64,000 nucleotides of DNA from a virus (lineage: Duplodnaviria > Heunggongvirae > Uroviricota > Caudoviricetes), in IMG/VR virus record IMGVR_UViG_2721755676_000001; one strand, given 5' to 3'. This document shows positions 5,995 to 32,928 of the stretch, piece after piece. The position numbers and the translations under genes were made by a program. Numbering within the stretch: position 1 is the stretch's first letter; every line of letters starts with the position of its first letter. A model generated the notes under the pieces. It ran no database searches. It had not been told where the DNA came from and saw only the letters and a program-made list of their open reading frames with translations.

Positions 5995-6173
5995 CACTTC
6001 ATCTACACTCGCGGCATTGGAAGCAAAGATATGGTCGTCTGGCACCTGATGCACATTGATAAGGCTATCAACCACACGCTGGAGAAGTTCTTTCCACCAG
6101 CCTGAACACAATGATTGTGCGCCTTATAGCGCCCATTAATATAGATAAGTACTTACCAACAAGGAGAAAACAC

Positions 6174-6449
6174 ATGAAGACTTTGGTTCGCATTTCATCT
6201 AGTACCGACTATGACGTTTACCCGTTGTTCATGATCAAGTGCGACGGGCTGAACGATGAAGAAATTCAAGCGGCAATTGAACGCAATCTAGTTGAATACA
6301 CAGGAATGGATGCGGATTCTATTTATATCGATGATGACGGTGTTTGTTGGCACAACGGTAGCTGCTGGTACGTAGACGACACAATGCTGGTAAGCGATGA
6401 AGACGCGGCCCATCTTGAGCGCATTTTGGGTATCAGCACTTTTGAGTGA
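6174..6449 (+). CDS. Hypothetical small phage-type protein (91 aa from MKTLVRISS)
   Basis: ATG at 6174 preceded by AAGGAGAAAACACATG, the initiation context shared with other early genes in the window. Confidence 0.5.
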   Translation: MKTLVRISSSTDYDVYPLFMIKCDGLNDEEIQAAIERNLVEYTGMDADSIYIDDDGVCWHNGSCWYVDDTMLVSDEDAAHLERILGISTFE

Positions 6450-6489
6450 TATTTACAGCAAAAATATATAAGTTAGCATTTACCTATCG

Positions 6490-6669
6490 TGAAAATTTTA
6501 TTAGATATCACGTTACTTATTATCTCGATAGCCTTTGTGCTCGACTGCATCTTCACAGGGGCAATCCGTAAAGCGCTGGCGCCTGTTAATGATGTGATGA
6601 TCAATGCGCTGGCCGTAGTACTGGTCTTCGACTCAGCATTAGGCGTTTTCAAAGGAGTCGTGGCATGAA
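6490..6669 (+). CDS. Possible small hydrophobic membrane protein (about 59 aa, GTG start)
   Basis: Open frame VKILLDITLLIISIAFVLDCIF...; stop overlaps ATG of next gene (ATGA); below track size cutoff. Confidence 0.3.
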
Positions 6670-7000
6670 GAAAACAGCCCTGGTACTGGCGCTGCTCACT
6701 CTCCCCGTCTTTGCGGACACACATGTCTATGAGTGCGAAATGTTTGTGGTCGAAGCGAAAAACGGCCTGATCCGCAACGCCGTTAAAGCTAATTACGGCG
6801 CGATGGTTGTGGACCGTGGCGAACAGTTTTATGTGGTACGCGATGATCGCGTCCTGTCTTCCCCGTTTCTCACTAAACGTAACGGCGAACTATCTGGCGT
6901 AGGTAAAGATAGGTTCGTTTACAACAAATCGGGTGATGTATACGGCGTTCACGCGAAGAACGACAGCTACCTTTTCGATGACTGCAAGGAGGTTGGGTAA
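6665..7000 (+). CDS. Secreted/periplasmic hypothetical protein with signal peptide
   Basis: N-terminus MKKTALVLALLTLPVFADT; RBS GGAG upstream. Confidence 0.55.
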   Translation: MKKTALVLALLTLPVFADTHVYECEMFVVEAKNGLIRNAVKANYGAMVVDRGEQFYVVRDDRVLSSPFLTKRNGELSGVGKDRFVYNKSGDVYGVHAKNDSYLFDDCKEVG

Positions 7001-7212
7001 TGGCATTAACACTGGCAGGTCTGGAAATCGAGAAAACAAGCGGCTACTGGCGTGCTAAGGGTTTCAAGCAGCCTGGCATTCTTGAGCGTCTGGAACGTGA
7101 AGATGGGTATATCGTCCACCAGCGGCGTGAATGGCGTATGTACGATCCAGAAACAGGAAAACTGACTACAAAAGCCGGAACACTTTGGGGTCTGTTAAAG
7201 AAAATACACTAA
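7000..7212 (+). CDS. Hypothetical small protein (70 aa)
   Basis: Translationally coupled to previous ORF (overlapping stop/start). Confidence 0.4.
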   Translation: MALTLAGLEIEKTSGYWRAKGFKQPGILERLEREDGYIVHQRREWRMYDPETGKLTTKAGTLWGLLKKIH

Positions 7213-29768: not shown

Positions 29769-30335
29769 ATGTGCAAGAAATGCAAAGCGATAGCTGATGA
29801 ACAAAACGCCTTATTCGAAGAAATGGATGCTAATGAACTGGTCAAAATGTTAGCCATTCTTCGAGGAATAGAAGACGTTTCCATATTTGAGAGACTGTTT
29901 ACAATACTTAATTTTAATTCCACCTTTGAAGAGCCAACTCAGATTGTAGCTTTGGCACACCATTTCGGTGTTCATTACCTTGCTGAAAAAGAGAGAGCTG
30001 ATAAGTTGCAAGCGACTTTGGATATGGTGAGCGAGACTCAAGAAACTGATGACGGTAACAAAAGTGAGACGATTATTGCCAGCAAAGATCGTGAAATTGC
30101 CGGGCTTAAATCCTCTCTAACGATGTTGATGTCTGCAATCAACCTTATGTCTTCTAAAGCAGGTTCTAAAATGCCATCACTAAACAGCGACGATCCGATG
30201 GCCGTTCGCCAGCTTTTAGGTGCAATGGCCGACCAGCTCGACGACACAAAGAGTCGCCTTGAAGACATGATGCGGGAGCTCACGCATCGCCATGACTTGA
30301 ATAAGCAGCCGCACAAAACGCAATACGCACTCTAA
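29769..30335 (+). CDS. Hypothetical protein (188 aa)
   Basis: Start context GGAAAAACACATG; palindromic motif upstream. Confidence 0.5.
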   Translation: MCKKCKAIADEQNALFEEMDANELVKMLAILRGIEDVSIFERLFTILNFNSTFEEPTQIVALAHHFGVHYLAEKERADKLQATLDMVSETQETDDGNKSETIIASKDREIAGLKSSLTMLMSAINLMSSKAGSKMPSLNSDDPMAVRQLLGAMADQLDDTKSRLEDMMRELTHRHDLNKQPHKTQYAL

Positions 30336-30476
30336 TACAGCACCAGTCGACAGGGGGCGACAGCCCCCATTTTTACGCCTTAAATCTGCTGTAACGCCTA
30401 TGAATGCAGCTTTTATGCCTTTTCAAGTTTGCGATAATTACACCAATCAGAAAACAAATTATTTAATGGTGTAATT

Positions 30477-32162
30477 ATGAATACAGCCCTTTCCATCATC
30501 GACGATGCCAGCTCAAACACTGCTATCGATTATCGTCAGGAAATGAACGTTATCCACGAAATTGTGGCCGAGTGCGAGAAAGAGATCGCCTTCATGTATC
30601 AGGTTCACAACTTCGTTTATGGCGACGAACGCCACAACATGATTAATCGCCTGCTGAAACTAAACCATCGACCAGATGAAGATCGCTCGCGTTTAAATCG
30701 AGGTTGGTTGGATAAAGTCGATCTGGAATGGGTGAAACAGAATATTTGGGCCGAGTACTGGAGGAAGGTCACGGACATGACTAACGTTTTGCTGATCATG
30801 CCAGCTTCCCGTCGAGATGAGTGGCGCGAGCAGTTTATAGAGGGCAAACAGGAAGTCATCAAAACTGACAGAACCGGCTACCAGATGAAGGTTAAAGAGT
30901 TCGTTGGTGTACCGGAGTTCAAAGCAGAAACGGTCATACCCACGATACTTAATTTGCTGAATGACAGGCACAAATATCTCTCTGAGCGCGTGTATGGCTT
31001 GTTTAAGGCGCTGAGTCCTGTGCACAAGACAAATAAGACAAATGGTTTCAGCGAGCGGCTGATAATCGCTGACTGCATTTCTGATTTCTGGCGGGACAGC
31101 GTTAGCGTGAACTATCGCAAAGAGGACTACATCGACGATCTGCGTGTCTTGCTTCATTTCTTCGCGCACAAAGAATTTATTACCATCAACCGCACTGCTG
31201 AGGTGCTATCAGCTGCGTATCGGGCAAACGACTGCCAGACCGGTGACTGGATGAACGTCGATGGAAATCTGATGCGCGTGAAGATGTTCAAGAACGGCAA
31301 CGTTCACTTTGAAATACATCCTGACGTGGCCTGGAAGTTGAATGAGGTGCTGGCTTACAGTATGCCTGCTGCAATCCCCGCGCCATGCCGAACTGCGCCA
31401 AAAACACGGGCACCAAAGCAGTTCGGTTTAATCCAGAAGACGATCTCCGTGCCGGTTCGCACTGCGCTTCGTGACGGGCGATTGAGCAAAGACAAAGGTG
31501 TATGGTACTTCTCTGATTCAGCTCTCCAGAAGTCGCAGGTGGAAGAGCTTGAGCGCACACTGAGCTTCATTGGCGGCGTGCAGGAGAAAAAGCACTGGCA
31601 GTTCCCGTATGACATCGGCCATACGCTAAATACGATTGTGGCTACCGGTTTAATACCGGATACAAAATCACACCAGTTCTACCCTACCCCACGCTTGATT
31701 GCTGAGTACGTTGCAAGAGCCACTGAATTGAAGCCTGGTGAGAAGCTGTTGGAGCCTCAAGCCGGACGTGGGGATCTTCTGGCCTATATTGACGCCGATC
31801 TGGAAGATGTTACCTGCATAGAAATCGCACCTCTCTTCGCTGATATCCTGCGTGGAAAAGGGTATACGAACACGATTTGCTGCGACTTCATAAAGTGGTC
31901 TGAGGACAACGCAGGTTATCAGTTCGACAAAATCGTTATGAACCCGCCGTACTCGCTTGGTCGTCATAGAGAGCACACGCTGGCTGCGCTGGGGCATCTG
32001 AAAGTCGGCGGGCGTCTTGTAGCAGTATTGCCGGGCACTGCGCCAATACTGGACTGGATGACGATGGATAATTACGTTTATGCCAGAGGGAAGTCGTTTA
32101 CCAACGAGTTTGAAGACACAGGGATCACAGTCAGCGTATACGTTTTCAAACGCGTTAAATGA
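30477..32162 (+). CDS. Two-domain protein: unknown N-terminal about 390 aa plus C-terminal N6-adenine (amino) methyltransferase domain
   Basis: FYPTP, LEPQAGRGDLL (motif I-like) and VMNPPYS (motif IV). Confidence 0.65.
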   Translation: MNTALSIIDDASSNTAIDYRQEMNVIHEIVAECEKEIAFMYQVHNFVYGDERHNMINRLLKLNHRPDEDRSRLNRGWLDKVDLEWVKQNIWAEYWRKVTDMTNVLLIMPASRRDEWREQFIEGKQEVIKTDRTGYQMKVKEFVGVPEFKAETVIPTILNLLNDRHKYLSERVYGLFKALSPVHKTNKTNGFSERLIIADCISDFWRDSVSVNYRKEDYIDDLRVLLHFFAHKEFITINRTAEVLSAAYRANDCQTGDWMNVDGNLMRVKMFKNGNVHFEIHPDVAWKLNEVLAYSMPAAIPAPCRTAPKTRAPKQFGLIQKTISVPVRTALRDGRLSKDKGVWYFSDSALQKSQVEELERTLSFIGGVQEKKHWQFPYDIGHTLNTIVATGLIPDTKSHQFYPTPRLIAEYVARATELKPGEKLLEPQAGRGDLLAYIDADLEDVTCIEIAPLFADILRGKGYTNTICCDFIKWSEDNAGYQFDKIVMNPPYSLGRHREHTLAALGHLKVGGRLVAVLPGTAPILDWMTMDNYVYARGKSFTNEFEDTGITVSVYVFKRVK

Positions 32163-32223
32163 TAGGTAAATGCTTACTTAATTTATGTAAGAATGTAGTT
32201 ACTAAACGATAAGAGAAAAACAC

Positions 32224-32928
32224 ATGAGCAACCTCCAGTTAGAGCATTTTAACGTCACAGGCCATTCCGATTTTCCTTTCAAGTTTACATTGAAAGGTTA
32301 TGCAGAGGATGCGGTAGGCCAGATCATTATTGATAAAGGCATCGTTAAGTTTGAGGGGAATTTTGATGAATCCGCGAAAACATTCATAGACTTCGTTGCC
32401 AAACGTTGGAGCGAGCAATGGAAAGACCTGGAAAAGCGCGCTAGTGAGTTTGATCGGTTCATGGATGCAATGGATACAGCAAAAGAGGCTCTTGCTGCCG
32501 GGACTCCGTTAGATCTGGAGTCACTTTTCAACGGAGAAGTGGCCTCTGCGATGTTCGCCACCATGTTCGCGGGTGAGTTCGTCCGCAGCGGTGCCAAAAA
32601 CTACCTTGAGCTGGATTACAACGTCCCTGCAATTGGCGATTTCGTCGTTACCATCCAACGCAAAGAAGGTAAGACGCCAGGTGAACGCGTCGCAGAGCTT
32701 GAGGCCGTTGTGGATCAGCGTAACGGAGAGTGTGACCGTTTGATCAACGAGCTTCATGCACTTCGGGAAGAAAGAATATGCGCGGGTAGCAATACACGTA
32801 ATGCAGCGGATATCTACTTCCAGTTAGTTGAGGAATGCCAGATTCCACCAGGCGGCTCTCTTGTCGATTACGTCAGACATTTAATGACGGAAGTTAACTC
32901 CAGCCATAAAGATGGTGAGGTGCGCTGA
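32224..32928 (+). CDS. Hypothetical protein (234 aa)
   Basis: Start context AGAGAAAAACACATG. Confidence 0.5.
   Translation: MSNLQLEHFNVTGHSDFPFKFTLKGYAEDAVGQIIIDKGIVKFEGNFDESAKTFIDFVAKRWSEQWKDLEKRASEFDRFMDAMDTAKEALAAGTPLDLESLFNGEVASAMFATMFAGEFVRSGAKNYLELDYNVPAIGDFVVTIQRKEGKTPGERVAELEAVVDQRNGECDRLINELHALREERICAGSNTRNAADIYFQLVEECQIPPGGSLVDYVRHLMTEVNSSHKDGEVR

Follow-up and report, generated by a model that had tools for sequence, protein, structure and literature searches.

A recurrent start-codon context with a candidate ACA translational enhancer in an SSU5-like phage-plasmid of Escherichia coli

The 64,000-nucleotide stretch of IMG/VR virus record IMGVR_UViG_2721755676_000001 analysed here in its whole length (the window) is, as judged from its sequence, part of an SSU5-like phage-plasmid of Escherichia coli. 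It is 98–99% identical to the Escherichia phages CMS-2020a and Cyrano, and from about 10.9 kb on most of the window is collinear with Cyrano, interrupted by a few short unmatched gaps. At six gene starts of this element, the ATG is preceded by a Shine-Dalgarno (SD) sequence and a short A-rich spacer ending in CAC, and it is this motif, the genes it heads and its presumable role in translation initiation that are the subject of this study.

The six copies (Table 1) had been listed in an initial annotation as a shared initiation context of several early genes, and all of them were recovered as exact strings on the + strand at the positions given there. Each of the six ATGs is a real gene start, in agreement with either the annotation of Cyrano or a full-length PHROG match. 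A sequence complementary to the 3′ end of 16S rRNA (AAGGA, AGGAG or GGA) is found at five sites, with only a weak AAGAGA at 32212, and the spacers between SD and start codon comprise 6–9 nt. Five sites have ACACA[UG], and the sixth has CACA[UG]. Upstream surroundings differ between copies. An AT-rich hairpin (ATAAGTACTTAC) directly precedes copy 1, and both nrdB and g87 are the first genes past terminator-like hairpins, located at 18733–18751 and 29632–29653. At sbcD a −10-like CAAAAT (11770–11775) precedes the motif by 6 nt (AACCAC), a position suggesting that the leader is probably very short and may span only about 13–16 nt.

The recurrence of the motif exceeds what base composition would produce. 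Gene starts were taken from the Cyrano annotation and, in unmapped regions, from open reading frames (ORFs), which left 73 usable starts in the window and 122 in Cyrano. The string AAACACATG occurs five times in the window, each time at a gene start of the + strand, compared to 0.98 expected occurrences, and none of 100 shuffles reached this number; GGAAAAACACATG occurs three times in exact form. CAC is the top trinucleotide before start codons (7 of 73 genes compared to a genome frequency of 1.4%, binomial p = 9e-5). AAAACAC precedes five of the 73 starts in the window and AACAC nine of the 122 in Cyrano, counts which were not reached in any of 5000 column shuffles, where each upstream column is permuted among genes and the position-specific composition of the ribosome-binding site (RBS) is thus preserved. 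The absence of enrichment relative to shuffled upstream regions had been named beforehand as the outcome that would speak against a shared context; the comparison was run and enrichment was found. A chance origin of the motif is thus ruled out by dinucleotide and column shuffles alike.

Across the Cyrano genome, the motif or a one-base variant heads about 12 of 123 genes, which encode a helicase, a cobalamin-synthetase-like protein, the Pol III alpha subunit, a gp32-like single-stranded DNA-binding protein (SSB), SbcD, NrdB, a TciA-like protein, two Ead/Ea22-like paralogues and three unknowns. All of them are preceded by an intergenic gap of at least 43 nt. None of these genes, whose functions are in DNA metabolism or accessory, is among the Cyrano genes published as being expressed in the lysogenic state (PMC9928086), and it is thus reasonable to label them as lytic-cycle genes; that they are early genes, as they had been called, is what we infer. 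Their start regions (−30 to +30) are less structured than those of other genes, as reflected in a minimum free energy of −4.9 compared to −8.4 kcal/mol and an unpaired probability of 0.67 compared to 0.54 (p = 1e-4).

Conservation of the motif was followed in orthologous gene heads of nrdB, the TciA-like gene, g87, ead and sbcD collected from IMG/VR, where it persists at protein identities of 79–90% for nrdB, 77–88% for sbcD, 77–92% for TciA, 52–99% for g87 and 71–100% for Ead. In many cases it is retained where the sequence farther upstream has become unalignable or was replaced, as found for nrdB, SbcD and gene 48. Relatives of nrdB keep AAAGGGAAACACATG or AAAGGAAAACACATG in a rewritten intergenic region, and in sbcD the block TGTATCAAAATAACCACAAAGGAAAAnACACATG is conserved in relatives with 85–88% protein identity, with GGAAGAACACATG still retained at 77–78% despite replaced upstream sequence. 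Most relatives of the TciA-like gene contain AAAAGGAAAACACATG, orthologues of g87 retain TAAGGAAAAACACATG down to 52% identity, and ATAAGAGAAAAACACATG is conserved in orthologues of Ead. SSU5 itself contains ten motif genes, nine of which are orthologous to motif genes of Cyrano. In a comparison of ten orthologous pairs between both phages, only 48% of 1468 four-fold degenerate sites are identical, in contrast to 46 of 50 positions of the AACAC preceding the ATG (p = 5e-11). Together with its survival when the flanks are replaced, this difference (92% compared to 48%) argues for selection on the spacer itself.

The comparison also distinguishes variable from constant parts. The SD is found as AAGGA, AGGAG, AGGGA, AGGTA or AGAGA and the A-run varies from three to six residues with an occasional internal G or T, whereas ACAC adjoining the ATG is constant, with GCAC, ATAC and ACAT as common variants. 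Since ACACAUG contains two overlapping ACA triplets, the second of which uses the A of the start codon, these variants still have an ACA within −6 to +1. In 66 distinct orthologous heads from the five genes, ACAC is present in 43 and an ACA within −6 to +1 in 59, compared to 5 of the 67 non-motif genes of the window.

The motif also occurs outside of the lineage. The exact 15-mer AAGGAAAAACACATG has at least 120 matches in IMG/VR, and among those listed, 27 are SSU5-like and 93 are located on unrelated contigs with a G+C content ranging from 0.26 to 0.67; 103 of these 120 have an ATG that begins an ORF of 50 codons or more. The fact that it opens ORFs in many of the 93 unrelated contigs suggests that the start signal is functional without an SSU5-specific factor. 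In contrast, CAC precedes the ATG in only 1.2% of the 887 other long ORFs of the same unrelated contigs (1.5% if an SD is present), which rules out a universal preference of phages for this trinucleotide. On these counts, its use at about 10% of genes is characteristic of the SSU5-like lineage.

Taken together, we favour an interpretation, to which we assign a probability of roughly 0.55, where the motif would act in cis as an unstructured and correctly spaced RBS combined with an enterobacterial ACA enhancer located at the AUG. It would head lytic transcription units and would be passed on under purifying selection, at times being copied along with its leader. Such an initiation region would consist of four parts, namely a moderate SD (AAGGA, sometimes AGGAG or AGAGA), a spacer of 6–9 nt containing only A and C, an ACA (usually as ACACA overlapping the A of the AUG) and the start codon. 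The A-run would keep the site single-stranded, and an AAGGA located 7 nt from the AUG would provide suitable spacing, the optimal aligned SD spacing in E. coli being about 7 nt. The ACA would act as a sequence-specific enhancer of the kind described in Salmonella, possibly as an anchor for the 30S subunit or its ribosomal protein S1. As an outcome, we would expect strong and uniform translation of the first cistron in lytic units of DNA metabolism and accessory function, several of which probably have short leaders, with inheritance being mostly vertical and accompanied by occasional copying of motif and leader between gene heads. The proposal that the sequence is a conserved translational control element would thus hold as far as a translation-initiation region under purifying selection is concerned. 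Regulation in trans would be a further assumption, and nothing was found that links a candidate protein to the motif.

The closest precedents for such a role are the ACA enhancers of yifK and dppA (Yang, Figueroa-Bossi and Bossi 2014, PMC3879156). Work in Salmonella showed that translation of yifK depends on each base of an ACA close to the SD, where G is the least tolerated replacement, and that dppA drops in expression by more than 100-fold once four of its ACAs are lost. The ACA may take different positions relative to the SD, initiation can be driven by ACAA repeats without an SD, and the reader is suspected to be ribosomal protein S1 (PMC3879156). The phage-plasmid motif shares with these enhancers a single-stranded, G-poor and C/A-rich start region, an ACA adjoining the SD, conservation at the level of individual bases and a host family, the Enterobacteriaceae. 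Unlike in yifK, where the ACA is located upstream of the SD, it is placed between SD and AUG and usually overlaps the latter (ACACAUG), and unlike in both genes, one version recurs at about 10–12 genes of a single mobile element.

Several observations weigh against this interpretation. An enhancing effect of an ACA placed between SD and AUG is assumed, as the one in yifK resides upstream of the SD. The literature on these enhancers would moreover be satisfied by any ACA-containing mix of A and C, whereas the motif has a C at −1 and a near-constant ACAC. The low usage of CAC in unrelated phages (1.2%) implies that a universal ribosomal optimum cannot explain its reuse in this lineage. Motif-free starts are also fairly conserved between Cyrano and SSU5, with an identity at −8 to −1 of 0.65 compared to 0.89 for motif genes (p = 0.08), so that conservation alone does not single out the motif; what sets it apart is that one and the same spacer recurs at genes that are not related. 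Finally, the difference between structural and lysis genes and the other genes of Cyrano (0 of 25 with motif compared to 12 of 98, Fisher p = 0.056) is only suggestive.

If correct, the motif would constitute a natural and evolutionarily tested strong start signal for enterobacteria, and it would provide a second, independent support for the ACA enhancer, in this case positioned directly at the start codon. As a marker of first cistrons in the lytic units of SSU5-like phage-plasmids, which are frequent in clinical isolates of E. coli, Salmonella and Klebsiella, it also helps their annotation with respect to the choice of start codons and the definition of operon heads.

The same recurrence could also reflect an RNA operator, where a trans-acting RNA-binder would recognise the A-rich sequence or the ACAC at the start codon and thereby co-regulate translation of the gene set, an explanation that we regard as possible but doubtful. 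Candidates for such a binder would be the FljA-family protein of the phage-plasmid or the host factors Hfq, CsrA and the small RNA (sRNA) GcvB, by analogy to T4 RegA acting on early mRNAs or FljA acting on fliC mRNA. In its favour, about 10–12 non-homologous lytic genes have one short sequence in common that extends across their AUG, this sequence is specific to the lineage, its spacer is conserved base by base, and the element encodes an FljA-family protein for which a tandem Hfq fold is predicted. Against it, the variable type of SD and length of the A-run leave only about 7–9 fixed nucleotides. The resemblance to T4 concerns a short A-rich sequence that overlaps the AUG and is common to many early or DNA-metabolism genes of one phage, and T4-like genes encoding UvsY, a gp32-like SSB, UvsW and Nrd proteins are annotated in Cyrano. 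However, unlike in T4, no RegA homologue or other annotated RNA-binding regulator was found when about 40 proteins of the window were compared to Pfam and PHROG, and besides FljA only families of unknown function were returned. The RegA consensus AAAAUUGUUAUGUAA is moreover U-rich, whereas the phage-plasmid motif contains no U. Pairing with RNA was also considered. As seed of an antisense RNA or sRNA, no complement longer than 8 nt was detected in the window outside of the sites themselves, the best one (TGTGTTTT), residing in the U-tail of the late-leader terminator, being too short. In case of host GcvB, whose verified sequence was used, the predicted R1 duplex energies of −15.0 kcal/mol for motif genes and −13.0 kcal/mol for others (p = 0.07) did not differ significantly, the output looked noisy, and this candidate was set aside.

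The FljA-family protein is the only candidate for a trans-acting RNA-binder that was found. Its AlphaFold model (pLDDT 80, pTM 0.77) contains two repeats of a helix followed by five strands, and since the top 50 fold matches in the PDB are all Hfq, the protein is predicted to consist of two Hfq/Sm domains in tandem; at the level of sequence, there was no match in the PDB, and no link between FljA and the Sm fold was found in our literature search. The gene is present in 12 of 12 SSU5-like phage records, six of which originate from Klebsiella pneumoniae, and in many enterobacterial contigs of 105–115 kb from many genera. To our knowledge, K. pneumoniae is non-flagellated, and the maintenance of the gene in Klebsiella elements thus implies that it may serve a purpose unrelated to flagellin. 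Proteins with an Hfq fold bind tracts rich in A (ARN), and AGGAAAAAC consists of three ARN triplets. FljA-type regulators are known to block translation of fliC mRNA by acting post-transcriptionally on its 5′ leader (PMC2652032), a system from flagellar phase variation of Salmonella and E. coli to which the full-length family member of the element offers a parallel. The 5′ untranslated region of E. coli fliC contains neither a clear motif nor the palindromic box described below, with only weak resemblances (AGGAUAAC and CAAcgaCUUG). Both are also absent upstream of the FljA-like gene, whose context is variable and often translationally coupled, and if the protein has a target in the phage, the 16-nt box would be the more obvious candidate. 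It appears unlikely that the motif, perhaps together with the leader box AGAAAACAAnUUGUUU, would be the RNA operator of the FljA-family protein and define a post-transcriptional regulon by which the plasmid-prophage silences its lytic genes of DNA metabolism or sets their timing. If this were the case, an Sm-fold family of flagellin repressors would have been recruited as translational master regulator of a phage.

The box AGAAAACAAnTTGTTT is a palindrome of 16 nt with a 1-bp centre that is located 18–30 nt upstream of the start codon at three of the six motif sites, those of nrdB, the TciA-like gene and g87, and that is conserved in relatives. Its 12-nt core has 18 matches with up to one mismatch compared to 0.6 expected. 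Eleven boxes in sense orientation are found 5–65 nt before starts on the + strand, and the late (terminase) operon has two of these in its leader. Three reversed boxes, each 32 nt upstream of a sense copy, bracket together with it an extended −10 element, (TGn)GAtAAT; this cassette of about 70 bp recurs at least three times, and a degenerate version precedes sbcD. A scan with the sigma-70 consensus returned fewer matches than in shuffled sequences, which indicates that the promoters are not of the canonical −35/−10 type; they were thus read by eye. Since many genes headed by the box lack the motif, both are separable modules. The set of boxes looks like a multi-operator regulon. It resembles the multi-operator prophage repressor regulons formed by P1 C1 operators and the stoperators of mycobacteriophage L5 in that a short conserved site is found at more than ten promoter-proximal or leader positions in the orientation of transcription, and it differs from both by its palindrome with a 1-bp centre and by the fact that DNA- or RNA-level action would both be possible. 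These surroundings may in fact matter more than the motif, as the promoter/operator box and a core Hfq-fold protein of the FljA family suggest a lysis-lysogeny circuitry of the SSU5-like family that is still undescribed in the literature searched.

Two observations concern individual boxes. In the leader of the late (terminase/head/tail) operon at 51905–51985, two boxes are followed by a terminator-like hairpin (GAGCGCatggacGCGCTC and TGTGTGTTTT) directly before the SD of the terminase small subunit, a layout that suggests control by antitermination or attenuation. The annotated ATG of the ORF at 39534–39884 resides inside a box (AGAAAACATGTTGTTT) and its PHROG match begins at residue 8, with the true start probably being the ATG at 39555, which is preceded by AAGGA.

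The motif might also act at the level of DNA, with its AAACAC as a variant half-site of the box (AAACAAnTTGTTT) that would aid binding of the box repressor and thus serve transcriptional instead of translational control. When cassettes are aligned at their −10 elements, the position taken by AGAAAACAAC in the homologous cassettes is filled by AGGAAAAACAC in sbcD (AAAATAACCACAA-AGGAAAAACAC compared to AAAATAACCACAACTAGAAAACAAC). The leader of nrdB contains a string of half-sites (TTGTTT, AAACAA, TAACAA, TTGTTT and AAACAC), and full boxes are present at half of the motif sites. However, several motif genes lack a box or TTGTTT nearby, a partner half-site at the right spacing is absent, as AAACACATGNNNN does not match AAACAANTTGTTT, and five of the eight upstream occurrences of AAACAC directly adjoin the ATG, which ties the constraint to the start codon rather than to the promoter. 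It is because of the missing partner and this position that we consider an operator role of the motif in DNA as quite improbable. The motif may still have evolved from the left half of the box or under the same A/C-rich constraint.

Similarly improbable, and ranked slightly lower, is a purely historical origin, where the motif would be left over from the duplication of promoter/RBS cassettes or from gene conversion and would do nothing that an ordinary SD does not. Duplicated regulatory cassettes had been proposed initially, and the proposal holds in part, since subsets of the heads share longer modules: (A)TAACCACAnAGGAAAA(A)CACATG is common to the heads of SbcD, CYRAN_56 and CYRAN_59, and the upstream box AGAAAACAAnTTGTTT to those of NrdB, TciA, g87 and the helicase. 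Such similarity beyond the core is seen in these subsets (AACCACAnAGG heads and the shared box). The motif itself comprises only 13–16 nt, and its flanks are unrelated at several heads, for example those of Pol III alpha, SSB and Ead. The region from −90 to −17 scores 9.9 in pairs of motif genes compared to 8.3 in other pairs, a difference that is driven by the box. Copying of leader and motif between genes apparently does occur, as the head of Cyrano gene 59 (AACCACAAAAGGAAAAACACATG) resembles that of SbcD, whereas its orthologues in the window, which carries copy 1, and in SSU5 have TAAGGAGAAAACACATG, pointing to one apparent copying event. Both this event and the repeated promoter cassette would be in line with a role of history, but a spacer without function would neither be expected to remain 92% identical between lineages whose four-fold sites have diverged to 48% nor to survive the complete replacement of its flanks.

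We find it very improbable that the motif would be a cleavage target of a MazF-type toxin, where a cut would part the SD from the AUG and either shut off the mRNA or leave it near-leaderless under stress, all the more as the underlying model of leaderless mRNAs and stress ribosomes is contested. The ACA at −4 to −2 followed by C does fit the MazF core specificity ^ACA[AUC] (PMC8546651), preferential cleavage of MazF near start codons was noted by Yang et al. (PMC3879156), and several toxin-antitoxin modules including HicAB are annotated on the element in Cyrano, but this is a coincidence of sequence alone and no gene of the MazF family was identified on the element. A link via HicA was dropped, since its specificity is poorly defined in the literature.

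Table 1. Positions of motif copies, palindromic boxes and the FljA-family gene in the window.
Feature	Position	Strand	Sequence	Remarks
Motif copy 1	6161–6176	+	AAGGAGAAAACACATG	start of 91-aa gene, function not known (6174–6449, phrog_2209, CYRAN_59 orthologue)
Motif copy 2	11782–11797	+	AAAGGAAAAACACATG	start of SbcD-like nuclease gene (11795–12880)
Motif copy 3	18820–18835	+	AAAGGAAAAACACATG	start of ribonucleotide reductase beta gene nrdB (18833–19975)
Motif copy 4 (variant)	29034–29048	+	AAAGGAAAGCACATG	start of TciA/TerB-like gene (29046–29471)
Motif copy 5	29759–29771	+	GGAAAAACACATG	start of g87, 188-aa gene, function not known (29769–30335, phrog_5508)
Motif copy 6	32212–32226	+	AGAGAAAAACACATG	weak SD AAGAGA; start of Ead/Ea22-like gene (32224–32928)
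Box	18787–18802	+	AGATAACAACTTGTTT	in nrdB promoter/leader, 30 nt before ATG; conserved in relatives
Box	29006–29021	+	AGAAAACAACTTGTTT	24 nt before TciA-like start
Box	29735–29750	+	AGAAAACAACTTGTTT	18 nt before g87 start
Further box copies	30449–30464, 37031–37046, 39527–39542, 40011–40026, 41679–41694, 51905–51920, 51930–51945			
Half box	33408–33416			
Reversed box copies	33360–33375, 36983–36998, 40918–40933			
FljA-family gene (Pfam Flag1_repress, PF03614)	44255–44773	−		full-length match, E = 1e-68; only trans-acting RNA-binder candidate found

Other features of the window concern its relation to Cyrano and its composition. Positions 1–6000 have no match in Cyrano and the region between 6 and 7.2 kb shares only 74% identity with it. 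The 6-kb stretch without counterpart opens with an ORF for an HsdR-like type I restriction subunit (6–3023) and contains a group II intron, consisting of a reverse transcriptase/maturase ORF (3902–5425) and a match to the Rfam family Intron_gpII (RF00029, 5429–5515), which we take to be the domain V/VI region of the intron. This is the single Rfam match in the window, with none at the six motif sites. It is followed by a fragment of an integrase core (rve, 5578–5994). A Rep3-type replication initiator (7792–9006, − strand) and an IS91-family transposase (9407–10606, − strand) are located further downstream, and the replication region of the window is unlike that of Cyrano.

Short AT-rich inverted repeats (ATAGGTAnnnnTACCTAT or ATAAGTAnnTACTTAT) are found in intergenic regions, often directly before an SD, at about 6143, 11665, 21065, 25900, 28113, 32164, 40420, 48582 and 60875; their grouping rests on inspection by eye, as a loose regular expression describing the family was not enriched relative to shuffled sequences. 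The region between 38000 and 38400 is A/C-rich and strongly skewed (AT skew 0.18, GC skew −0.13), with runs rich in CAA and ACA, and the ORF located there, which begins with TTG, is doubtful. Finally, the phage-plasmid carries a gene for a methionyl-tRNA synthetase (34865–36898), which is annotated in Cyrano as CYRAN_100.

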